A stretch of 42,580 nucleotides of DNA from a virus. Taxonomy: Duplodnaviria; Heunggongvirae; Uroviricota; Caudoviricetes. Each line of letters opens with the position of its first letter. Position 1 is the first letter of the stretch. The stretch spans positions 1 to 42,580 of IMG/VR virus record IMGVR_UViG_2917393062_000002. One strand, 5' to 3'. Positions 9,560 through 23,827 of the stretch are shown here, piece by piece. Both the position numbers and the translations under genes were made by a program. The notes under the pieces were generated by a model that was not told the origin of the DNA, did no database searches, and was given only the letters and a program-made list of their open reading frames with translations.

Positions 9560-9841
9560 ATGTACGCACTGAAAAAAATTACGGTAACTGAAGATGGTCG
9601 CCAGGTTGAGGAAGTGCATGTCCTGGGGGATATGTATCGTCTGGAGTTCTATCCGCGTGACACTCATCTTGCAGCAAAAATTGAGTATTGCCGGGGCGGG
9701 GGTATTCCATGTATTCCGGTAGAAAAAGAGGATGAGGCTTACATTACCACGCTGACTGGAGACACGGTGCGTTGTATCTGTCGCGGTGACAGTAAAGCCA
9801 GGAATGAAATAGCCAGATGCCGAACCCATACCAGTAAATAA
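9560..9841 (+). CDS. Hypothetical Cys-rich protein
   Basis: 93-aa ORF with GGAGG 8 nt upstream of ATG; no TM segment. Confidence 0.35.
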   Translation: MYALKKITVTEDGRQVEEVHVLGDMYRLEFYPRDTHLAAKIEYCRGGGIPCIPVEKEDEAYITTLTGDTVRCICRGDSKARNEIARCRTHTSK

Positions 9842-9846
9842 AAAGT

Positions 9847-9881
9847 AAAACCCCGGCTGCTGGAACAGTCCGGGGTTTTTG
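9847..9881 (+). terminator. Rho-independent terminator
   Basis: AAAACCCCGG-ctgctggaacagt-CCGGGG-TTTTT. Confidence 0.65.
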
Positions 9882-9971
9882 GTTTTCACGTCAAAGAGGA
9901 AATTGTGATCAGTGAGTACGGAGAAAATCCTCGTGGGGAAGTATAAAAGATTCTTTTTGAGGTTGTCCATT

Positions 9972-11203: not shown

Positions 11204-11704
11204 GTGGATAAGGAACTGAAACACCTTGTTCTTAATGTCAGCCAGTTGGCTGCGCTGTCTGGTGTGCACCGACAGACTGTCGCATCAAGAATCAAAAATG
11301 TCCGAACAGCGGGTGGACATGAAAGTAATCTCAAGCTGTATAAACTTACCGATATTCTGGCAGAGCTAATGAAATTGCCACCGCCTGTCGCTGAAGGGGA
11401 GATGGATCCCCATGACCGAAAAGCCTGGTATCAGTCAGAACGTGAACGCCTGAAATTCGAACAGGAGGTCGGAGAACTGATCCCTGCGTCTGATGTCGCT
11501 CGTGAATTTGCTGAAATGGCAAAGGCTATGGTGCAGGTTCTGGAAACTCTCCCCGATATTCTTGAACGCGATTGTGCTCTTGAGCCTTCGGCTGTCATGC
11601 GGGTGCAAAGCATTATTGATGATCTGCGTGACGAAATTGCACGACGGGTGGCAGATGACAGCAAACAGGAAGATGCAGAGGAGGAAAATCAGGAGGACGA
11701 ATAA
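11204..11704 (+). CDS. terS: Terminase small subunit (helper phage)
   Basis: GTG after GGAGGG; 166 aa; HTH-like N-terminus, acidic C-terminus; stop overlaps terL start; paralogue at 21994..22476. Confidence 0.65.
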   Translation: MDKELKHLVLNVSQLAALSGVHRQTVASRIKNVRTAGGHESNLKLYKLTDILAELMKLPPPVAEGEMDPHDRKAWYQSERERLKFEQEVGELIPASDVAREFAEMAKAMVQVLETLPDILERDCALEPSAVMRVQSIIDDLRDEIARRVADDSKQEDAEEENQEDE

Positions 11705-12699
11705 TGCCTGTGCAGGCGACCGCCAGATCGTTGAAACTGGATACAGGCCAGTTAATTAAAGCGCCGCGCAGAATGCCTGTTGCCGAAGCGGTACAAAAAT
11801 TTATGCGAGTCCCTACATCTGGTGGCAACTCTGTTCCGTGGGATCCGATGGTTGCACCGTATGTGATTGAACCCATGAACTGCCTGTCGTCCCGTGAGTT
11901 TGATGCGGTTGTTTTTGTTGGTCCTGCCCGTACGGGCAAGACTAACGGCCTGATTGATGGCTGGGTGGTTTATAACATTGTCTGCGATCCGTCTGACTTT
12001 TTGCTGGTGCAGATGACGCAGGATAAGGCGCAGGAGCACTCCAAAAAGCGCCTGGCAAGAACATTTCGTTGCAGCCCGGAGGTCAGAAAACGCCTCAGCC
12101 CACGCCGTAACGATAACAACGTTCATGACAAATATTTTCTGTCGGGCAGCTTTCTGAAAATCGGCTGGCCTTCCATCAATGTCATGTCATCCTCTGATTT
12201 TAAATGTGTGGCGCTGACTGATTACGACCGATTTCCTGAAGATATCGATGGCGAAGGTGATGGTTTCTCCCTGGCTTCAAAACGTACCACAACATTTATG
12301 TCAGCTGGTATGACGCTGGTGGAGAGTTCTCCCGGGCGTGAAATCACAAACAGCAAGTGGCGCAGAACGTCACCGCATGAAGCCCCGCCCACCACGGGGA
12401 TCCTTTCTCTGTATAACCGTGGCGATCGTCGTCGCTGGTACTGGCCTTGTCCGGATTGTGGTGATTATTTCCAGCCATCGATGGAGGCTATGACGGGATA
12501 TCGTGACAATCCTGATCCTGTAAAAGCCAGTGAAGCGGCTCATATATTGTGTCCGCATTGTGGCAGTCAAATCACTGCAGATATGAAACGTGAACTGAAT
12601 GGTCGCGGTGTCTGGTTGCGTGAAGGTGAGCAGATTGACAGAGAAGGGAATGTTACCGGAACGCCACGTCATTCAAGGATAGCCAGCTTCTGGATGTAG
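11704..12699 (+). CDS. terL: Terminase large subunit (GpA-like), N-terminal ATPase part, interrupted by island insertion
   Basis: 331 aa with P-loop VGPARTGKT and CPDCG...CPHCG Zn-finger-like motif; ends ...IASFWM then TAG supplied by inserted DNA; continues in frame at 22703 after removing the insertion. Confidence 0.8.
   Translation: MPVQATARSLKLDTGQLIKAPRRMPVAEAVQKFMRVPTSGGNSVPWDPMVAPYVIEPMNCLSSREFDAVVFVGPARTGKTNGLIDGWVVYNIVCDPSDFLLVQMTQDKAQEHSKKRLARTFRCSPEVRKRLSPRRNDNNVHDKYFLSGSFLKIGWPSINVMSSSDFKCVALTDYDRFPEDIDGEGDGFSLASKRTTTFMSAGMTLVESSPGREITNSKWRRTSPHEAPPTTGILSLYNRGDRRRWYWPCPDCGDYFQPSMEAMTGYRDNPDPVKASEAAHILCPHCGSQITADMKRELNGRGVWLREGEQIDREGNVTGTPRHSRIASFWM
12688..12699 (+). other. Left junction (attL-like) with core CTGGATG
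   Basis: TTCTGGATG|TAGGGTACATTTC: terL sequence changes to AT-rich island DNA; same 7-bp core at 22696..22702. Confidence 0.5.
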
Positions 12700-12860: not shown

Positions 12861-14099
12861 ATGTCGGTAAAGCCATTAACCGTGACTGAAGTTAAGGGGA
12901 TGAAACCACGTGAAAAGGACTATGCTGTTTATGATGGGTTCGGTTTATTGCTGAATGTGAGTAAAGCTGGTGGGAAAGTGTGGCGTTTTCGTTATAGCCA
13001 TCCGATAACGAAGAAACGGCAGACATACACGATAGGGCGTTTTCCTGAATTCTCACTCGCGGAAGCACGGGAAGTACGTGATGAACTTCGGCGAATGATT
13101 GCACGTGGAGTTGATCCAGTGACAGAGAAGAAAAATCGTAAAATTGAGATGGCACTAAAAAATCTACAGACATTTGAATCTGTTGCTAATGCATGGGTTG
13201 CCTTTAAAAAGGGAGCAGAATTGCGGAAGCCTACGTTAAATAACATCGAATATGAAGTATATAAATATCTTGTTCCTTTCTTTGGTAAATATAGTATAGA
13301 TAAGATTACAGCGCCATTAGCAATTAAGATACTGGATGCAGTATCTGATAAAAATGCGTTGCAAAAAAAATTAATATCAAGATTAAATGAAATTATGAAT
13401 TATGCCGTAAATTGTGGTGCGTTAAAAATAAATCCATTGCTTAAAATAAAGACTGCATTCGCTGGAAAGAAAAATAAATCATTGGCTGCGTTACCTATAG
13501 AAAGATTACCTGAATTTCTGAGTTGGTGGGATAGTGTGCCTCATAACTACCAAATAGCGCATAATGCACTTTTATTCCAGGTATTGACCATGGTCAGGCC
13601 GGGAGAGGCGATCCAGGCAGAGTGGTCAGAGATAGATTTTGATGCTGGTCTGTGGGTTATTCCTGAGCATAAAATGAAATGCCATCGTGAACATGTTGTG
13701 CCCCTGTCATCACAGGCCATTAGCATCCTGAGAACAATGCAGGAAATAAAAAGAGGGCGTTATGTATTCTATTCATCCAGAACCAAAGACGCGCCTATGG
13801 GGAGGAAAACTATAAATACTGCGATTACCTCCAGTAAGTTCAAAGGGATTGTAACGTTACATGGTTTTCGTTCGATGTGGAGTACGCTTTTAAATGAGGA
13901 AGGATTTAACCCCGATGTAATTGAGGCTGCATTAGCACATAAAAGTGGTGATAAAATAAGAGATATTTATAATAGAACTACTTATTTAGAACAACGCAAA
14001 ATTATGATGCAATGGGTAGGCGATTTTTTTGATGAGGCGAGAAAAGGGGTAATTAATAGATCCTGTGGTAAGAAAGGTTTGAGAATAGTAAATGGTTGA
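12861..14099 (+). CDS. int: Tyrosine integrase, P4-type
   Basis: 412 aa; P4-type N-terminal arm-binding signature (GGKVWRFRYSHP...FPEFSLAEAREVRDELRRMIARGVDP); C-terminal catalytic region with HGFRS and conserved Tyr; about 160 bp from attL. Confidence 0.85.
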   Translation: MSVKPLTVTEVKGMKPREKDYAVYDGFGLLLNVSKAGGKVWRFRYSHPITKKRQTYTIGRFPEFSLAEAREVRDELRRMIARGVDPVTEKKNRKIEMALKNLQTFESVANAWVAFKKGAELRKPTLNNIEYEVYKYLVPFFGKYSIDKITAPLAIKILDAVSDKNALQKKLISRLNEIMNYAVNCGALKINPLLKIKTAFAGKKNKSLAALPIERLPEFLSWWDSVPHNYQIAHNALLFQVLTMVRPGEAIQAEWSEIDFDAGLWVIPEHKMKCHREHVVPLSSQAISILRTMQEIKRGRYVFYSSRTKDAPMGRKTINTAITSSKFKGIVTLHGFRSMWSTLLNEEGFNPDVIEAALAHKSGDKIRDIYNRTTYLEQRKIMMQWVGDFFDEARKGVINRSCGKKGLRIVNG

Positions 14100-14111: not shown

Positions 14112-14315
14112 ATGAATACCAATGAAGATATTTTATTTACTAAAGACGTAATGAAAATTTTGCGCTATGGGGCAATGAGCGCATTCATTAATTTCTGGAA
14201 AGATGAAAGCAATGGTTTTCCTCAACCGTTCAGAATTGGGCGGCGGCATACCTGGCACCGTAGAGATGTAGAGGCATGGTTAGATAAACAACGAGAACAG
14301 GCCAATCCCCACTAA
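14112..14315 (+). CDS. AlpA-like small DNA-binding protein (excisionase/regulator candidate)
   Basis: 67 aa; AlpA-like pattern (FPQPFRIGRRHTWHRRDVEAWL); immediately downstream of int. Confidence 0.5.
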   Translation: MNTNEDILFTKDVMKILRYGAMSAFINFWKDESNGFPQPFRIGRRHTWHRRDVEAWLDKQREQANPH

Positions 14316-14374: not shown

Positions 14375-14956
14375 ATGAATAAAAATATTGCCGTGACGGG
14401 CAAGGGTGACGCTCGTCCAGTGAAAAATTTCTGCAATATTCGTGATCTAATCGTTCTGCGCTTTGATGGCGTGGATGTTCGCGTGGTGTATCTGAATGGC
14501 GATCCGTGGTTTGTTGCAAAGGATGTTTGTGAAGCTCTGGAAATAAGCAACTCACGCGATGCTCTAAAAGCTCTGGATGTGGATGAGAAGAATACCGTCG
14601 CTTTAAGCTACGGTATTCGCGGAAATCCAAATCATAGCGTCGTTTCTGAATCTGGTTTTTACAAGCTGATCGCCAGAAGTCGCAAAGCTGTTACTCCTGG
14701 CACGTTCGCCCATCGTTTCAGTAATTGGGTATTCAGAAATGTGATACCGGGTATCAGAAAAACGGGGGCTTATGGTATCCCGTGGGGCGCATTACAGGAT
14801 TTTTCCCGCCGTAAAGAGCAATATCAGATAAGTGCCAGCGAGAAGGGGAGGGAGCTACAGGCATGTAAGCGCAAAAAGCGTGAGCTGGAGGAAGAAGAAA
14901 AAAGGCTGATACGTGAATATCAGCCTGAGTTTTACTTTGACAACTGCATTCAGTGA
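14375..14956 (+). CDS. Bro-N domain protein (antirepressor-like)
   Basis: 193 aa; N-terminal Bro-N-like motifs (WFVAKDVCEALEI, SESGFYKLIARSRK, FSNWVFRNVIPGIRKTGAYG). Confidence 0.6.
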   Translation: MNKNIAVTGKGDARPVKNFCNIRDLIVLRFDGVDVRVVYLNGDPWFVAKDVCEALEISNSRDALKALDVDEKNTVALSYGIRGNPNHSVVSESGFYKLIARSRKAVTPGTFAHRFSNWVFRNVIPGIRKTGAYGIPWGALQDFSRRKEQYQISASEKGRELQACKRKKRELEEEEKRLIREYQPEFYFDNCIQ

Positions 14957-15049
14957 CAAAACAAAGGCGACCGGGGGCGGTCGCCAATGGGAAAACACTA
15001 AACATAAGCACGGGGATGATAGCCGCTATCAGGCTGGTGGGCAATGCAA

Positions 15050-15238
15050 TCAGTCTTGTTCAGTTCGTTGCCATACCTGCAATGAGCGCGTTTCCCTGTA
15101 CTCTTTAAGGAATTGCTCAAGGGCAAAAGCACATGGCGCGAATCTTTCTGATTCATGCTCTATCTTTCTGCGCCGTCTTTTCCGTGCCGGTGATAATGTT
15201 TTGGTCAATTCTTTATCGGTCATTGTGTTGTCCTGCAT
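15050..15238 (-). CDS. Hypothetical basic protein, possibly co-transcribed with the RHH-like gene
   Basis: 62-aa minus-strand ORF downstream of the RHH-like gene; weak RBS. Confidence 0.25.
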   Translation of the reverse strand: MQDNTMTDKELTKTLSPARKRRRRKIEHESERFAPCAFALEQFLKEYRETRSLQVWQRTEQD

Positions 15239-15280
15239 AGCAATGCGCCGTAATACCTTACACCACGGCGCTGGTGATGG

Positions 15281-15460
15281 TTATTCCTGCTCTTTGGCCT
15301 TGCGACGCTGGCGGTATTCAACTTCTCGCTTTAATGCTGCTGTTACAAACTGCCCTGTACTTTCACCAGGCATTTTTACCGCCTCAACATTGTTCATAAC
15401 TTCATGCGGAACCCTTGCCGCAACTGTTTGTGATTTTGCGTTTACTGCTTTTGTCGCCAT
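15281..15460 (-). CDS. Small ribbon-helix-helix-like DNA-binding protein (candidate island repressor), 59 aa
   Basis: Minus-strand ATG at 15460 preceded by AAGGGG; MATKAVNAKSQTVAARVPHEVMNNVEAVKMPGESTGQFVTAALKREVEYRQRRKAKEQE (beta-strand then two helices); divergent from operator repeats; below ORF-track cut-off. Confidence 0.4.
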   Translation of the reverse strand: MATKAVNAKSQTVAARVPHEVMNNVEAVKMPGESTGQFVTAALKREVEYRQRRKAKEQE

Positions 15461-15510
15461 GTTGTGTACCCCTTACAAAAAACAAATGCAGTATGCAGGA
15501 AAAAAAATAA

Positions 15511-15562
15511 GTGTTCAACACTTGACGTGTTTAACACCAGGGCTTAAATTGGTGTTCAACAC
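15511..15562 (+). promoter_or_regulatory. Three palindromic operator-like sites GTGTT(C/T)AACAC overlapping a candidate rightward promoter
   Basis: GTGTTCAACAC at 15511 and 15552, GTGTTTAACAC at 15527; TTGACG at 15522 and TTAAAT about 17 bp downstream; between divergent RHH gene and rightward operon. Confidence 0.5.
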
Positions 15563-15658
15563 CTTGTTGATGCAAGGTGCAGAAACGACGAAACCCGGCA
15601 GTGCGCTAACACTAACCGGGCTTCTAACCACCAACGATAGAAAGCGTATCGAGGTAGC

Positions 15659-15866
15659 TATGTTAAATCATACCACACACCCGCAAGGGCGGGACTCGCA
15701 CAACCTGAATAAATACATCTGGCGTTTTATCGCCCTGAGCACGGCACAACCGCGCGTGATTACCATTGAGGCCACCAGCGAACAGGAAGCACGCCAGCAA
15801 TCTCCTGATGGCTGTGTGATGGTATTCGCCGCCCGTATTCGCCAGGGGGTGCACCATGTGCAATAA
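15659..15866 (+). CDS. Hypothetical protein (first gene of rightward island operon)
   Basis: ATG after GAGG; 68 aa C-terminal part of a 317-aa track ORF whose upstream part looks non-coding. Confidence 0.35.
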
Positions 15867-16086
15867 AAACACGCCGGACGCAGCAGGCGAAGCATTGAAA
15901 GTACTGATACATGCGCTTGTGGATATAAATTGCATGGTAGAGATCATGGAGAAGAAATCACAGTCGGAGTACGACAAAAGAAAATTTAAAACAATAAAAA
16001 TAATTACCAAAAACTCACTGACAAAAGCTACAGACATCCTCAATGAGGACACTAAAAGAATCAGGGGGAAACTGTGTGATGCATAA
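15856..16086 (+). CDS. Hypothetical protein
   Basis: 76-aa ORF overlapping upstream stop; AGGGGG upstream. Confidence 0.35.
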   Translation: MCNKNTPDAAGEALKVLIHALVDINCMVEIMEKKSQSEYDKRKFKTIKIITKNSLTKATDILNEDTKRIRGKLCDA

Positions 16087-16306
16087 AATACCTTTTGATG
16101 TTCTTATTCATTCTGAAAACGCATTAATCCGCGCAAAGGAAATGGAGGCATTATTACTTAAGTTAATGGAAGTGCCGGAAAATGGCGATGAATCATATCC
16201 CATGATGTTTTCTGCCGTGCACACATTATTAACGCCAGTAATTAACGAATTAAATACGGTGATGGCAATTCACGAGAATAATAAAACGCATCACACCGGA
16301 GAATAA
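16079..16306 (+). CDS. Hypothetical protein (start 16079, or 16043 per ORF track)
   Basis: In-frame ATG at 16079 preceded by GGGGAAA; overlaps upstream stop. Confidence 0.35.
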   Translation: MHKIPFDVLIHSENALIRAKEMEALLLKLMEVPENGDESYPMMFSAVHTLLTPVINELNTVMAIHENNKTHHTGE

Positions 16307-16311
16307 AAACC

Positions 16312-16611
16312 ATGAAACAGAAAAATTCTGGCTTTACTGCCAGCGGCCTCTCTCGGCCTGAAATCCGCCCCGGCGATATTTTCAAAGATAAATACGGCGG
16401 CACTGTAACGATTAAAAGCGTGGCGGGACGGTGTGTTACTTACCGCCGTGATGGGTACGGCTATGACTGCGTGATGCCTGTTTATCAGTTCCGGCGTGAT
16501 TTTTCTCTGGTACAGAACGCAACACGCGGTAAGCCCACCAGCAGGGAAAAAGCACGGGAAAATATTAAGAAAATAAAAAGCATGCTCAGCGCATCCAGAG
16601 GTAAAAAATGA
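16312..16611 (+). CDS. Hypothetical basic protein
   Basis: 99 aa; GGAG upstream; stop overlaps primase start. Confidence 0.4.
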   Translation: MKQKNSGFTASGLSRPEIRPGDIFKDKYGGTVTIKSVAGRCVTYRRDGYGYDCVMPVYQFRRDFSLVQNATRGKPTSREKARENIKKIKSMLSASRGKK

Positions 16612-18356
16612 AACTGGCACCGAACGTAAAAAAACAGCCTCGCGGAATAAAAAACAAAGACACAGAGGTAATTATTTTCGCGGGTAGTGATGCCTGGTCG
16701 CATGCGCAACAGTGGCAGGAGAAGGACGGTCCCGCATCCGGCGATAATGTGCCGCCTGTGTGGCTTGGGCCAAATCAGCTTGCCGAACTTGATGCGCTGA
16801 AAATTGTTCCGGATGGAAAAAAACGCGTAAGGCTGTACCAGGCCGGAGAACTGGATTTAGTGGAGACCAAAAAGATTGGTCAGAAGCTGGCGGCGGCAGA
16901 TATTCAGGATGCGAATTTTTACCCTGAAGGAATGCACGGTCAGAAGTGTGAAAACTGGCGGCGCTATTTGAATGCTGAGCGTGAAAATATTGCCGCAGGG
17001 CTTACCATGCCGGAGCAGAAAAATACGCAACTGGCACAGATGGCAGACAGTGAGCGCGCACAGATGCTTGCTGGTCGGTTTGATGGCGTATGTGTGCATC
17101 CGGAAAGTGAAATCGTTCACGTCTGGCGCGGCGGGGTATGGTGTCCGGTCAGCACAATGGAACTGAGTCGCGAAATGGTGGCGATTTATTCAGAACATAA
17201 GGCCACTTTCAGCAAGCGCGTAATCAGTAACGCCGTTGAAGCGTTAAAAGTTATTGCCGAACCAATGGGCGAGCCGTCCGGTGATTTGCTGCCGTTCGCC
17301 AATGGTGCGCTTGACCTGAAAACGGGGGAATTTTCCCCGCACTCGCCGGAGAACTGGATCACCACGCACAACGGTATTGAATACACGCCGCCAGTACCAG
17401 GGGAGAATATCCGCGACAACGCGCCAAACTTTCATAAATGGCTTGATCACGCTGCCGGAAAAGATCCGGGCAAGATGATGCGTATATGCGCCGCGCTATA
17501 CATGATTATGGCGAACCGGTACGACTGGCAGATGTTTATTGAGGCCACCGGAGACGGCGGGAGCGGCAAGAGCACTTTCACGCACATAGCCAGCCTTCTG
17601 GCAGGGAAACAGAACACAGTAAGCGCTGAGATGACATCGCTTGATGATGCTGGTGGGCGTGCGCAGGTTGTCGGGAGTCGGCTTATTGTCCTGGCAGACC
17701 AGCCGAAATATACAGGCGAAGGCACGGGCATCAAGAAAATCACGGGCGGCGACCCCGTGGAAATTAACCCGAAATATGAAAAGCGTTTCACAGCGGTAAT
17801 CAGGGCGGTTGTGCTGGCAACCAATAATAACCCGATGATATTCACCGAACGGGCCGGAGGCGTGGCACGTCGTCGCGTGATTTTCCGTTTCGACAATATC
17901 GTCAACGAGGCCGAAAAAGACAGGGAACTACCGGAAAAGATTGCGGCTGAAATCCCCGTCATTATCCGCCGATTACTGGCGAACTTTGCAGACCCTGAAA
18001 AGGCGCGGGCTTTACTACTGGAACAGCGTGACGGTGATGAAGCACTGGCGATAAAGCAGCAAACGGATCCGGTTATTGAGTTTTGCCAGTTCCTGAATTT
18101 TCTGGAGGAAGCACGCGGCCTGATGATGGGCGGCGGTGGCGATTCCGTGAAGTACACGACCAGAAACAGCCTTTACCGCGTCTATCTGGCGTTTATGGCA
18201 TACGCAGGCAGAACCAAACCACTAAACGTAAATGACTTTGGCAAGGCCATGAAGCCAGCCGCAAAAGCTTACGGACATGAATATATTACGCGAAAAATTA
18301 ATGGGGTGACGCAGACTAACGCAATAACAACCGACGATTGCGACGCGTTTTTATAA
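16608..18356 (+). CDS. Primase/helicase-type replication protein (P4 alpha / D5-like NTPase domain)
   Basis: 582 aa; Walker A GDGGSGKST, Walker B-like LIVLAD; immediately followed by an iteron array. Confidence 0.75.
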   Translation: MKLAPNVKKQPRGIKNKDTEVIIFAGSDAWSHAQQWQEKDGPASGDNVPPVWLGPNQLAELDALKIVPDGKKRVRLYQAGELDLVETKKIGQKLAAADIQDANFYPEGMHGQKCENWRRYLNAERENIAAGLTMPEQKNTQLAQMADSERAQMLAGRFDGVCVHPESEIVHVWRGGVWCPVSTMELSREMVAIYSEHKATFSKRVISNAVEALKVIAEPMGEPSGDLLPFANGALDLKTGEFSPHSPENWITTHNGIEYTPPVPGENIRDNAPNFHKWLDHAAGKDPGKMMRICAALYMIMANRYDWQMFIEATGDGGSGKSTFTHIASLLAGKQNTVSAEMTSLDDAGGRAQVVGSRLIVLADQPKYTGEGTGIKKITGGDPVEINPKYEKRFTAVIRAVVLATNNNPMIFTERAGGVARRRVIFRFDNIVNEAEKDRELPEKIAAEIPVIIRRLLANFADPEKARALLLEQRDGDEALAIKQQTDPVIEFCQFLNFLEEARGLMMGGGGDSVKYTTRNSLYRVYLAFMAYAGRTKPLNVNDFGKAMKPAAKAYGHEYITRKINGVTQTNAITTDDCDAFL

Positions 18357-18370
18357 TTTTTGGCAATTGC

Positions 18371-18590
18371 TGTCTACCTTGTCTACCTGATTACATAAAA
18401 GTTGTTTTAATTCAGTGTATTAATTTAGGTAGACAGCTTTTTTTTACTGTCTACAAGCTATCTACACTGTCTACCTGTTTTTGTAGCCAGCCGGAGGGAT
18501 GAGTAGACATCAGGTAGATAGTGGTTTTTTACTGTCTACATCCATTAAACCCGCGTCATTACTGGCCTGAGCATCTATCAGGTAGACAGA
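18371..18590 (+). repeat. Iteron array / candidate island replication origin
   Basis: At least 10 copies of TGTCTAC(C/A) or its complement GGTAGACA in both orientations, interspersed with A/T tracts, directly downstream of the primase/helicase gene. Confidence 0.75.
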
Positions 18591-18645
18591 GTAGACAAGG
18601 TGGGGGTAGGCCTAAAACTTTTTAAACGAGGGGGTAAAAATAAAA

Positions 18646-18903
18646 ATGCACACATCAGAAAAATTTAACAATCAGAAGAAATCACATAACCGCGCCATTG
18701 ACCTTACAGAGCACTGGCTGAGGGTGGCGATAAAAATCATCGACCGCAACGCGGGAGAAGGATACGCGAAAGCGCATCCCGAACTGATAAGCGCATTCAT
18801 GAACACAGCGGCGGCAAACTTTGCCACGCTGACAGAACGGGAGATTGCGGAAGCGGAACAGGTGACAACTATCAACGTTAAAACCGGAGAACAGACAGCA
18901 TGA
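18646..18903 (+). CDS. Hypothetical protein
   Basis: 85 aa; GAGGGGG upstream; stop overlaps SSB start. Confidence 0.4.
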   Translation: MHTSEKFNNQKKSHNRAIDLTEHWLRVAIKIIDRNAGEGYAKAHPELISAFMNTAAANFATLTEREIAEAEQVTTINVKTGEQTA

Positions 18904-19936: not shown

Positions 19937-21781
19937 TTGATGGAAATTTCATTGTATGAGCCAATCGAAGGCGTAACCGCAAGACAGTTCCGCGATTCAC
20001 TTATGGCTGCAAAAGGCCCGGTTACGGTTGCCATAAACAGCGGTGGCGGAAATGTAACTGACGGCATGGCGATGTTTAACGCCCTGAGAACGTACAAAGG
20101 CCACACGGTCGCAAGAATCGACGGTATCGCCGCATCAATGGCTACCATTGTTGCGCTCGGTGCCCGGCGTGTCGTGATGGCTGATAACGGCTGGTGGATG
20201 ATCCATAACCCGTGGGGCGTTTTTGTTGGTGAATCGGAAGATCTCCGCAAAAAAGCCGACATGATGGAAAAAATCGGCAAGGCAATGCTTGATACCTACG
20301 TTGCCAAAACCGGATTACCGGAATCAGAAATCAAAGCCATGATGGATGCTGAAACATGGCTGACGGCTGAGGAAGCGAAAGAAAAAGGATTTATTGATGA
20401 AATTTATCCGGCAGAGGGACAGGCATTAGCCATGGCCCCTGGTTGCGGATCACTGGTAGAGAAATTTACCAGAACGCCGGAAAGCATCATCGCATCGATG
20501 AAGAAAGGCGACACGGGATCAGCAAACGAAAGAGAGAAGCGAAAAAAAGAAGCCGACGTTTTGTTTGCTTACTGGAAGAATTCTTCGTATGAGTGGTTGC
20601 CAGGAATTGTTGAAGAATTTATCAGCGGTTCCATCACTGCCGAAGAAGCACGTAAAAAACACTTAGAAAAACTGGCGGAAGAGACAACGCCGTGCGCAGG
20701 ACCAGGAGCAATGAACATGTATGCAGGTAACGGTAATATTGTTGGGGATTCAGTAAAAGCGGCGCTTATGGCACGCAGTGGACTGGCGGATGTGGAAAAA
20801 GATAACCGCTATAACGGTTATTCATTGCGGGAACTGGCGCGCGCTTCTCTGGTGGATCGTGGGGTAAGCGGCATTCCAGGTAATCCGCTGGGCATGGTTG
20901 GAATGGCGTTTACTCACAGCAGTAGTGATTTTGGCGGCATTCTTGCGGACGTGGCGCATAAATCATTACTGAAAGGCTGGGAAGATTCGCCGGAGACGTT
21001 CCACGCCTGGACGAAAAAAGGCACTCTGACAGATTTTAAGGTTGCCCATCGTGTTGGTATGGATGGTTTTAAATCTCTGCGAAAAGTTTTGCCAGGCAGC
21101 GAATATAAATACGCGTCCACGTCCGATCGCAGCGAGCCAATTGCACTGGCAACTTATGGCGAACTGTTCAGCATAGATCGCCAGGCAATCATCAATGACG
21201 ACATGAGCGCACTGACTTCAATCCCCCAGCAAATGGGGGCAGCAGCAAGCCGCACAGTCGGGGATCTGGTTTATGCCGTTCTCGTGGCCAATCAGAAGAT
21301 GGGCGATAAAAACCCGCTCTTTGATGCGAAACACAGCAATCTGATTAACAGCGAACTTGATATTCCAGGCCTGAGTGCAGCCCGTAAAGCTATGCGTATG
21401 CAAAAAAATAATGCTGGTGCTGTACTGAATATTCCGCCTCGTTTCCTGTTAGTTCCGGTAGAACTGGAAGACAGAGCAACCCAGCTTATTCGTTCTACGT
21501 CGCTACCAGACGCGCAGAACAGCGGTGTGTTTAACCCATACAATGATGCACTGACAGTAATCACAGAGGCGCGACTTGATGCCGACAGCGTGAAATCCTG
21601 GTATCTGCTTGCGGGTCAGGGAAGTGATACAATTGAAGTCGCTTATCTCGATGGTATTGATACCCCGTACCTGGAACAGCAGCAGGGCTTTACGGTTGAC
21701 GGCGTAACTTTCAAAGTGCGCATTGATGCCGGAGTTTCTCCTCTGGACTGGCGCGGGATGGTTAAGTCATCAGGTGGTTAA
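19937..21781 (+). CDS. Island prohead protease (ClpP-like)-linker-major capsid protein fusion
   Basis: 614 aa; N-terminal ClpP/S14-like domain; C-terminal ~330 aa about 70% identical by eye to the helper capsid domain (GNGNIVGDS...IEVAYLDGIDTPYLEQQQGFTVDG). Confidence 0.8.
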   Translation: MMEISLYEPIEGVTARQFRDSLMAAKGPVTVAINSGGGNVTDGMAMFNALRTYKGHTVARIDGIAASMATIVALGARRVVMADNGWWMIHNPWGVFVGESEDLRKKADMMEKIGKAMLDTYVAKTGLPESEIKAMMDAETWLTAEEAKEKGFIDEIYPAEGQALAMAPGCGSLVEKFTRTPESIIASMKKGDTGSANEREKRKKEADVLFAYWKNSSYEWLPGIVEEFISGSITAEEARKKHLEKLAEETTPCAGPGAMNMYAGNGNIVGDSVKAALMARSGLADVEKDNRYNGYSLRELARASLVDRGVSGIPGNPLGMVGMAFTHSSSDFGGILADVAHKSLLKGWEDSPETFHAWTKKGTLTDFKVAHRVGMDGFKSLRKVLPGSEYKYASTSDRSEPIALATYGELFSIDRQAIINDDMSALTSIPQQMGAAASRTVGDLVYAVLVANQKMGDKNPLFDAKHSNLINSELDIPGLSAARKAMRMQKNNAGAVLNIPPRFLLVPVELEDRATQLIRSTSLPDAQNSGVFNPYNDALTVITEARLDADSVKSWYLLAGQGSDTIEVAYLDGIDTPYLEQQQGFTVDGVTFKVRIDAGVSPLDWRGMVKSSGG

Positions 21782-22692: not shown

Positions 22693-22702
22693 TTCCTGGA
22701 TG
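22693..22702 (+). other. Right junction (attR-like) with core CTGGATG
   Basis: AT-rich island DNA ...TTCTTCCTGGATG|GAAGGGCCGG resumes terL coding sequence. Confidence 0.5.
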
Positions 22703-23827
22703 GAAGGGCCGGCTGCTGCGTATCAGACCTGGGCGCAACTGGTTTACAAACTACTGACTGCTGAGCAGGAATATGAAGCCACAGGCAGTGAGGAAACACT
22801 GAAGGCGGTGATTAACACCGACTGGGGATTACCTTATTTGCCTCGTTCCGCAATGGAGCTGCGTAGTGCGGATGTTCTGATGCAGCGGGCCGAGGACTAC
22901 GGTAAGCGCCTGGTACCGCCGAAAGTACGTTTTCTTATTGCGGCTGTGGACGTGCAGGGCGGGAAGAACCGACGGTTTGTGGTGCAGATTATTGGCTATG
23001 GCGAGGACGGCGAACGCTGGCTGGTGGACCGTTATAACATCCGACAGTCATTGCGCTGCGATGAAAATGGCGAAGCATTACCTGTGCATCCCGGGGCTTA
23101 TCCTGAAGACTGGCAGTTGCTGGTCACCGATGTACTGGAGAAAACGTATCCGCTCCAGTCCGATCCGGCCCGCAGAATGCCTGTACTGGCAATGGCGGTG
23201 GACAGTGGTGGTGAGGACGGGGTGACGGATAACGCCTATAAATTCTGGCGAAAATGTCGTCAGGATGGACTGGGGCGACGGGTTTTTCTGGTAAAGGGAG
23301 ACAGCACGAAACGCCAGAAAATTATCACCATCACACACCCGGATAATACCGGGCGAAGCGATCGTCGTGCTGATGCTCAGGGAAAGGTGCCGGTATATCT
23401 CCTGCAGACAGACCTGCTGAAAGATCAACTAAGCAATAACCTGCAACGTGAAATGCCCGGACCGGGCTACATTCATTTTCCTGACTGGCTCGGGGAGTGG
23501 TTTTATGAAGAGTTGACCTATGAGGAACGCGGTGCTGACGGGAAATGGCGCAAGCCGGGAAAAGGGAATAACGAAGCGTTTGACCTTTTTTGCTATGCCC
23601 ATGCTGTCGCCATTCTGCGTGGCTATGAAAAAATCCGTGACTGGAGCAATCCTCCCCAGTGGGCAAGGGGGCAGGATGCTGATGCGGGGGCTTCAGCAGA
23701 CAGACGTTCTTCCGGCACAGTGGACAAGAAAAACGTTGCCGGAAGAGATGAGCGGCAAAAAGCAGCGTCGCCGGAAGCGTTATCCGGAAACTGGTTATCA
23801 CTACCCCGAAACGGAGGATGGTTGTGA
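22700..23827 (+). CDS. terL: Terminase large subunit, C-terminal (nuclease) part
   Basis: 375 aa GpA-like C-terminal domain; in frame with 11704..12696 once 12697..22702 is removed. Confidence 0.8.
   Translation: MEGPAAAYQTWAQLVYKLLTAEQEYEATGSEETLKAVINTDWGLPYLPRSAMELRSADVLMQRAEDYGKRLVPPKVRFLIAAVDVQGGKNRRFVVQIIGYGEDGERWLVDRYNIRQSLRCDENGEALPVHPGAYPEDWQLLVTDVLEKTYPLQSDPARRMPVLAMAVDSGGEDGVTDNAYKFWRKCRQDGLGRRVFLVKGDSTKRQKIITITHPDNTGRSDRRADAQGKVPVYLLQTDLLKDQLSNNLQREMPGPGYIHFPDWLGEWFYEELTYEERGADGKWRKPGKGNNEAFDLFCYAHAVAILRGYEKIRDWSNPPQWARGQDADAGASADRRSSGTVDKKNVAGRDERQKAASPEALSGNWLSLPRNGGWL

Follow-up and report, generated by a model that had tools for sequence, protein, structure and literature searches.

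The IMG/VR record IMGVR_UViG_2917393062_000002 (Caudoviricetes) is a stretch of 42,580 nucleotides (nt), here called the window, in which a satellite island of about 10 kb (roughly 12.7–22.7 kb) is inserted in the large-terminase gene of a lambdoid prophage and co-oriented with it. Inside the island, a minus-strand gene for a 59-amino-acid (aa) protein of the YlcI/YnfO family is divergent from three 11-bp palindromes, the predicted operators O1 to O3, which lie on the promoter of a rightward operon leading to a primase-helicase. Judged by sequence comparison, this locus is likely to be a ribbon-helix-helix (RHH) repressor-operator immunity cassette, in which the operators and the first ~50 codons of the gene can be swapped. 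It would be an uncharacterised example of the well-known RHH repressor-operator switches. In Gram-negative phage-inducible chromosomal islands (PICIs) an "off switch" has been missing, and the small, putative DNA-binding protein with its three sites on the replication-gene promoter probably fills that role, supported by a predicted small antisense RNA. The founding paper on these elements described them as transcribed unidirectionally, with a global repressor that was "unclear" (PMC6092414). No description of an RHH repressor in a Gram-negative PICI was found in the literature. A first-pass annotation of the window had proposed a small RHH-type repressor divergent from operators on the promoter of the primase operon, and this core reading is supported by the fold, the geometry, the covariation and the boundaries of the cassette.

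The minus-strand gene and the sites on the divergent promoter

The 59-aa open reading frame (ORF) described in the first-pass annotation is present with its good ribosome-binding site, AAGGGG, 8 nt from the ATG (Table 2). It had been presented as a missed ORF; it is a real gene, but one that RefSeq already annotates at the same position in E. coli islands as "YlcI/YnfO family protein". The protein matches NCBIfam NF041551 over residues 9–50 with 59.7 bits (E 2.1e-16), where the curated cutoff for family membership is 30 bits, and it also matches PHROG 949, a family of unknown function. Close homologues number at least 74 and are spread across Enterobacterales. Compared with 12 relatives, the 59-aa frame has 25–33 differences at third codon positions and 5–13 at second positions, and because the differences pile up at third positions the frame is a coding sequence. 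A tblastn search of 50,697 phage GenBank records with the protein returned no match, so at this level of sensitivity sequenced phages show no member of the subfamily. No description of the function of YlcI/YnfO was found in the literature, and a 2026 survey lists the protein in capsid-forming PICIs merely as a "prophage-associated protein" (PMC13612085). The E. coli K-12 proteins YlcI (from DLP12) and YnfO (from Qin) resemble the window protein in being small NF041551 members with an R-x-P-x-[EQ] strand-helix start. YlcI is, however, just 22% identical to it, and ylcI, which adjoins cos/nohD in a lambdoid prophage, has no divergent promoter with three sites.

The three GTGTTnAACAC palindromes claimed for the window are exact and lie where the first-pass annotation had placed them. 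No further exact copy occurs in the 42.6-kb window, and the three 11-mers fall inside 52 bp, against ~0.04 expected in the whole window. When up to one mismatch is allowed, five sites are counted where 1.36 are expected, a number reached in none of 100 shuffles. The promoter proposed along with them holds for its −35 element, TTGACG, but the promoter scan picks TAAATT (15545) as the −10 element, and the TTAAAT at 15544 that had been put forward is an alternative with a 16-nt spacer. Almost every related locus has the TTGAC and a −10-like hexamer of this rightward promoter (P_R) in the corresponding position, and the −10 element CATACT of the predicted leftward promoter (P_L) aligns with a conserved TATACT of the relatives.

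The comparison was made with 31 loci from one-per-species genomes, plus extra loci for chosen proteins, and took in about 30 related islands from at least 15 enterobacterial genera. The conserved layout upstream of the ATG of the RHH gene begins with a site at about −100, followed by a −10-like hexamer and a site at −77 that abuts GTCAA, which is the TTGAC −35 element of the rightward promoter. Nearer the gene come a T-rich stretch, TATACT as the leftward −10 element and usually a third site right after it, at −32. The position of O2 (−77) is invariant across loci and that of O3 (about −100) is kept. The position of O1 is common to two other loci, the Edwardsiella island L002 and L004, and most relatives instead carry the site just downstream of the P_L −10 element. 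The window and L002 have no −32 site but one at −61, over the leftward −35 element, and L004 has both. Overall, about 25 loci have the geometry of TTGAC(G), a 17–18 nt spacer and a −10 element, with one site in the spacer, one just after the −10 element and a third on the promoter of the RHH gene itself.

Membership of the 59-aa protein in the RHH superfamily is likely but not proven. The AlphaFold2 model (predicted local distance difference test score 80.6) has helices at residues 19–28 and 35–58 and an N-terminus of low confidence, as is expected for an RHH monomer because the strand forms only in the dimer. The sequence signature looked for was an alternating strand with Arg at its end, followed by helix A, a G-x-S/T turn and helix B, and it is found in an alignment of 32 family sequences, where R16-V-P-H-E and G32-E-S-T are invariant or nearly so and R16, P18 and H19 are invariant or almost invariant. 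In hhalign, residues 9–31 align with residues 6–28 of Arc in the RHH register (P 0.008). Residues 12, 14 and 16 then fall on Gln9, Asn11 and Arg13, the base-contacting residues of Arc. A profile search of 1.84 billion representatives yielded 79 relatives, and some distant ones weakly match RHH-clan families of Pfam (overall range 3e-4 to 5e-3), namely PSK_trans_fac (five members, 3e-4), RHH_1 (two members, 4.5e-4), CopG_antitoxin and RHH_5; DUF3950 is matched as well. The top structural matches are CopG-family structures, and most of the matches are RHH antitoxins (Rv0298, CopASO, ParD2, TacA2 and RelB), with omega also present.

Site types, matched residues and exchange of the cassette

From locus to locus the sites keep their position and change in sequence, with all copies in a locus changing together, and at least 10 site types can be distinguished. 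The types are accompanied by changes in residues 11–15 of the protein (Table 1). Two pairings were predicted beforehand and held: the KKLEA protein of E. coli goes with GTGTCAGCCAC, as in Xenorhabdus, and the KRFDV protein of Salmonella goes with GTGTCGGACAC, as in Pectobacterium, at a locus where the divergent gene encodes a KilA-N protein and not an Icd-like one. Pairs of proteins with the same operator agree at residue 14 in 88% of cases, those with different operators in 4%, and residues 4 and 5 of the N-terminal arm are identical in 88% of same-operator pairs versus 17% and 13% of different-operator pairs. In the same per-position contrast, those helix A and helix B positions that vary are not associated with operator type. 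The operator signal therefore goes beyond joint inheritance with a linked gene. In a graded Mantel test, only the arm is significant (residues 1–8; r 0.73, p ≤ 0.0005).

Table 1. Residues 11–15 of the RHH protein and the site found with them.
Residues 11–15	Site	Remarks
QT[VLI]AA	GTGTTGAACAC	window type
QSLKS / QALKA	GTGTGGCCCAC	EcCICFT073 type
[KR]KLEA	GTGTCAGCCAC	
KRFDV	GTGTCGGACAC	
QK[LV]Q[AT]	GTGGACTCCAC	
QALRA	GTGTAGACCAC	two copies inverted
QKMSA	CTGGCACCCAG	N-terminal arm also changed
QKIQA	CTGGATTCCAG	N-terminal arm also changed

Two of the site types share K12 and Q14 in the protein and a central GGAyTCC in the site, and differ in the outermost base pair (GTGG..CCAC versus CTGG..CCAG). 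In these two classes, the only ones concerned, that difference tracks the N-terminal arm, which begins MATGTKN.. in one and MTRDHIN.. in the other. From such sequence comparisons, the arm may read the outer bases of the operator.

The boundaries of the exchanged segment emerge from comparisons with individual islands. L002 has an identical 59-aa protein and identical operators, yet its Icd-like protein is only 53%, its primase 50%, its AlpA 41% and its integrase 38% identical to those of the window. It has no counterpart of orf62, the ORF downstream of the RHH gene in the window, and only the segment from −250 to +200 around the RHH ATG is 86–96% identical. Against EcCICFT073, the prototype island, the flanks are 92–100% identical and the segment from −150 to +150, comprising the operators and RHH codons 1–50, is only 56–78% identical. 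The loci L033–L035 share one module beside three different replicases. Given these mosaic patterns, the specificity partner cannot be AlpA, the Icd-like protein, orf62 or the replicase, and by analogy the patterns resemble the behaviour of phage immunity regions.

EcCICFT073 itself carries the same module (L041 18200–18900, corresponding to NC_004431.1 at about 1380200–1380900), with the YlcI/YnfO gene at 18474–18653 on the minus strand and the Icd-like gene from 18853 on the plus strand. It also has a 57-aa homologue of orf62, operators of the GTGTGGCCCAC type and the antisense element described below. According to the locus tags, its YlcI/YnfO and Icd-like genes were added only at re-annotation. 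The first-pass annotation had put forward the AlpA-like and Bro-N proteins encoded upstream in the window as plausible partners in excision and derepression; of these, Bro-N is absent from EcCICFT073. Of 5426 complete E. coli genomes, 1888 have a match to the 1.8-kb stretch around the module (14900–16700).

A predicted antisense RNA over the start of the Icd-like gene

A second regulatory layer, absent from the first-pass annotation, is a predicted cis-antisense RNA of the SymR type that is complementary to the leader, Shine-Dalgarno sequence and AUG of the Icd-like gene. A permissive Rfam scan finds SymR (RF01809) on the minus strand at 15587–15659 with 32.8 bits (E 1.9e-4), which does not reach the SymR gathering threshold of 61 bits. 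An alignment of 26 loci folds into a pair of hairpins; compensatory changes support 16 of the 26 base pairs. Of the cells, 95.1% are paired, compared with 84.7% for shuffled alignments (none of 500 did as well) and ~40% for slid controls. The pairs are 95.1% valid on this strand and 79.2% valid on the opposite one, and the 110 G-U cells stand against 3 A-C cells; this imbalance indicates that the RNA is antisense to the Icd-like leader, Shine-Dalgarno sequence and AUG. A T-rich tail comes after hairpin 2, and at the place of the predicted antisense −10 element a TGnTAnnnT motif is kept in related loci.

A covariance model built solely from satellite-island loci matches the annotated symR of E. 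coli K-12 (L042 9825–9919, or NC_000913.3 at about 4579835–4579911) with 35.3 bits (E 4e-7). A second match of the model, at 9837–9914 on the minus strand of the window (23.7 bits), was rejected as a homologue; it is a GC-rich hairpin flanked by T runs in the lysis-terminase interval of the prophage and is most likely a terminator that works in both directions. SymR, 77 nt long, lies opposite the 5′ end of symE, and its promoter is inside that ORF (PMC1891008). The same architecture, cis-antisense to the 5′ end of an ORF that contains the promoter, is read from the island sequence. The two RNAs are alike in architecture, and each is found with a model of the other. They differ in target, which is SymE in K-12 and the Icd-like gene here, and in the partner control, which is LexA in K-12 and the RHH protein here. 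The symER locus may derive from this kind of island switch. No description of a link between SymR and PICIs was found in the literature.

The RNA layer and the RHH cassette can be separated. Two Salmonella contigs (L036, L037 1967–3177) carry a KRFDV module divergent from KilA-N, in an element that encodes a dATP/dGTP pyrophosphohydrolase, and have neither an Icd-like gene nor the antisense hairpin. The RHH cassette can therefore travel without the RNA layer. An E. coli island (L033 3538–3864) has the antisense-RNA element twice in tandem. After the second copy comes another 59-aa RHH ORF, which is Arc-like (..FQFRLDPDLREKMEKA..) and is preceded by a perfect 16-bp palindrome, ATGTGTATATACACAT. 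The same regulatory slot seems to be filled by another RHH family there.

The arrangement also recalls the immI region of P1 (c4 RNA-icd-ant) and the CI RNA of P4, in that an Icd-like ORF stands first in a small-RNA-controlled early operon of a temperate element. In P1 and P4, however, the RNA is processed from the sense leader, whereas the RNA here is cis-antisense. Some Gram-negative PICIs carry relatives of C4 or isrK (PMC10111431). Rfam finds no C4 or isrK match inside the island, and the only ones in the window are in the helper prophage (2695–2880), where isrK (2695–2772) and the C4 antisense RNA (2796–2880), both on the plus strand, score above the Rfam gathering threshold. That isrK/C4 element is an RNA immunity element of the P1/P7/P4 type and is separate from the island.

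Proposed regulation, its alternatives and the island setting

From the position of the sites and their covariation with the protein, we infer binding, repression and autoregulation along the following lines. The 59-aa protein would be a dimeric RHH repressor whose β-strand (residues ~11–17, with residue 14 central) and N-terminal arm read the 11-bp GTGnnnnnCAC sites. That such a dimer would insert a two-stranded sheet into the major groove has indirect support in the way strand and arm residues track the site sequence. Dimers at O2, in the P_R spacer, and at O3, on the start site, would occlude RNA polymerase, so that as long as the island stays integrated the Icd-like gene and the rest of the rightward operon, as far as the primase-helicase, would not be transcribed. 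Negative autoregulation would come from O1, which covers the −35 element of the repressor's own promoter. The SymR-like RNA, if expressed as predicted from a start inside the Icd-like gene, would pair with the leader, Shine-Dalgarno sequence and AUG of rightward transcripts that escape and block translation of the Icd-like gene. Induction is a matter of speculation: AlpA-dependent rightward transcription might read convergently across the repressor gene into the operon, and helper late transcription entering through terL could act likewise in an embedded island. With such read-through, P_R would no longer be needed and interference would shut down the repressor. The AlpA of Pseudomonas is a processive antiterminator (PMC7969949).

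Several findings weigh against this proposal. AlpA is an activator, and overexpression of alpA alone induces excision and replication of EcCICFT073 (PMC6092414). Whatever repression exists can thus be overcome with no known anti-repressor, and a repressor is not the sole control. P_L is a weak match to the consensus (8 of 12 positions) and falls under the scan threshold, so that it goes unlisted there. With respect to the fold, the window protein matches no RHH family in Pfam, giving a spurious Med10 match alone; Foldseek against the Protein Data Bank (PDB) gives nothing below E 5, and hidden Markov model searches of the PDB with two profiles give nothing significant, the best being the RHH antitoxin CcdA at E 0.46. 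The association between gene and operator partly reflects co-inheritance, since the two are tightly linked. The graded Mantel test is not significant for residues 9–17 (r 0.16, p 0.06) or for residues 11–15, because the distances saturate, and the per-position contrast is the more informative of the two.

Of the alternatives, an unlikely one is that the RHH protein binds the sites but serves as an activator, as an architectural or partition-type protein like omega or ParG, or as a copy-number regulator after induction. RHH proteins of the omega/ParG type bind arrays of short repeats, and omega is among the structural matches. The combination of an RHH protein with an antisense RNA is, moreover, the copy-control logic of plasmid pMV158, where the RHH repressor CopG at the promoter and the countertranscript RNAII, directed against the leader and ribosome-binding site, exert dual control of the operon leading to repB. 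The likeness extends to dual RHH and antisense control of an operon that leads to a replication protein, but CopG is co-transcribed with repB, whereas the RHH gene is divergent here, and the antisense RNA here targets the first, Icd-like gene and not the replicase, in an integrated phage satellite and not a plasmid. Promoter spacer and start site are repressive positions, and no partition ATPase is encoded nearby, both of which speak against this alternative.

It is very improbable that the RHH protein is a type II antitoxin with orf62 as its toxin, the sites merely autoregulating that pair. RHH antitoxins do dominate the structural matches, and a small ORF does follow the RHH gene in the same transcription unit. 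That downstream gene is not conserved, however; it is absent in L002, and elsewhere its place is taken by unrelated ORFs of 57–248 aa. Only one of the three sites is on the gene's own promoter, the other two being on the divergent one, and the 59-aa protein has no C-terminal toxin-binding extension. A toxin-antitoxin role was rejected on the ground that no conserved toxin gene stands directly downstream of the RHH gene.

There is an equally slight chance that another factor binds the repeats, be it AlpA, the Icd-like protein, the replicase using them as iterons or a host or helper protein, with the small ORF as a bystander. In favour of such a factor, PHROG labels the Icd-like family "transcriptional repressor", and AlpA is a known PICI regulator (PMC6092414). 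Identical operators nevertheless stand beside the divergent AlpA, Icd-like and primase proteins of L002, beside the different replicases of L033–L035 and at loci with no Icd-like gene at all, by which the Icd-like protein, AlpA and the replicase were ruled out as operator binders. Site types also differ between islands within one host species, and it is at the residues of the RHH protein predicted to read DNA that the variation is located. Finally, although the ORF is short and the window protein lacks a Pfam match, the ORF and palindromes can hardly be chance features of a non-coding spacer, a view refuted by the 11-mer statistics, the NF041551 match and the coding signature among at least 74 homologues.

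A repressor-operator switch of the kind preferred here has its closest parallels in phage and island immunity systems. In the immI region of P22 (Mnt, Arc; P_ant), too, a small RHH repressor is divergent from the operon that it represses, its operator overlaps the promoter and its own promoter is affected. P22 has one 21-bp operator, whereas there are three separate 11-bp GTGn5CAC sites here; the controlled gene is an antirepressor there and a satellite replication operon here, and no shared sequence family is detectable. The conserved 10-residue N-terminal arm appears to add specificity in comparison with Arc and Mnt. The Stl and Rpr regulators of Gram-positive PICIs (Staphylococcus aureus pathogenicity islands) similarly lie between the int and replication sides and are divergent from the replication operon (PMC6092414). 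Stl proteins, however, are larger helix-turn-helix proteins lifted by helper-phage proteins, whereas AlpA expression alone suffices to induce EcCICFT073 (PMC6092414).

A broader and decidedly tentative extension is that the YlcI/YnfO-type RHH protein could be the master repressor of Gram-negative PICIs, whether of the EcCICFT073 type, capsid-forming or helper-embedded. It would exist in at least 10 interchangeable immunity types set by an arm-plus-strand code and act in tandem with a SymR-family RNA, of which symER would be a domesticated remnant. If the protein is a repressor, it gives a concrete handle on the silence of widespread islands, suggests how several islands with distinct immunities could coexist in one cell and points to a way in which the switch might be thrown by AlpA or by late transcription from the helper. 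The protein-operator pairs, of which there are at least 10 that differ at a few residues, would be a ready system for the study of RHH recognition and a source of orthogonal repressors, and the SymR link suggests an origin for a chromosomal type I toxin-antitoxin RNA. What adds interest to the locus is its natural, swappable specificities, the pairing with a SymR-family RNA and its presence in model islands without a known repressor.

The island that holds the module has the gene order of Gram-negative PICIs of the EcCICFT073 type (int, alpA-like, primase, captured late genes) in the helper-embedded configuration (PMC10111431). The N-terminal part of the large terminase TerL (11704–12699) ends ..SFWM*, and its C-terminal part (22700–23827) resumes on the same strand with MEGPAAAYQTW..; RefSeq relatives show the same split. 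No exact repeat of at least 9 bp was found between the island ends as an att core, and the junction was therefore placed from the split TerL reading frame. The genes int, AlpA-like and Bro-N run rightward, orf62 and the RHH gene leftward, and the Icd-like gene through the primase-helicase rightward again (Table 2). The long plus-strand ORF at 14913–15866 had been dismissed as non-coding; this holds for its upstream part, a shadow frame that is closed in several relatives, but its last 68 codons are the Icd-like gene. orf62 is nearly identical in EcCICFT073 and PA45B and is absent from L002 and most other loci.

Table 2. Features of the switch locus and its surroundings, in positions of the window.
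Feature	Position	Strand	Remarks
Proposed repressor gene, 59 aa, YlcI/YnfO family, RHH-type	15281–15460	−	ORF, NCBIfam
Shine-Dalgarno AAGGGG of RHH gene	15469–15474 (15474→15469)	−	8 nt before ATG; read from sequence
Leftward promoter P_L (predicted)	15490–15518	−	−35 TTGAAC 15518→15513, 17-nt spacer, −10 CATACT 15495→15490; read from sequence
Operator O1 (predicted), GTGTTCAACAC	15511–15521		over P_L −35, abuts P_R −35
Rightward promoter P_R (predicted)	15522–15550	+	−35 TTGACG 15522–15527, 17-nt spacer, −10 TAAATT 15545–15550; promoter scan
Operator O2 (predicted), GTGTTTAACAC	15527–15537		in P_R spacer, one base shared with −35
Operator O3 (predicted), GTGTTCAACAC	15552–15562		2 bp after P_R −10, covers predicted start site
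Cis-antisense RNA, SymR-like (predicted), ~80 nt	15580–15661	−	two hairpins, U-rich tail; Rfam, covariation
Extended −10 of antisense RNA (predicted), TGGTATGAT	15667–15675 (15675→15667)	−	codons 3–6 of Icd-like gene; read from sequence
Shine-Dalgarno GAGG of Icd-like gene	15651–15654	+	
Icd-like gene, 68 aa	15660–15866	+	first of rightward operon; NCBIfam NF033153 E 1e-19; RefSeq in relatives
Rest of rightward operon	15856–18356	+	orf76, orf87, DUF4222 (16312–16611), D5-type primase-helicase (16608–18356)
orf62, very basic 62-aa ORF	15050–15238	−	KRRRRK motif; PHROG 21027; downstream of RHH gene, same leftward unit
Intrinsic terminator of leftward unit	14966–14985	−	GGCGACCGCCCCCGGTCGCC then TTTGTTTTGT; terminator scan, strong
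AlpA-like gene	14112–14315	+	
int	12861–14099	+	

Elsewhere in the island there is a captured late gene at 19937–21781 on the plus strand, whose 614-aa product fuses a ClpP-like prohead protease to a major capsid protein. Two tRNA genes, at 7373–7445 and 7452–7523 on the plus strand, belong to the prophage portion of the window.

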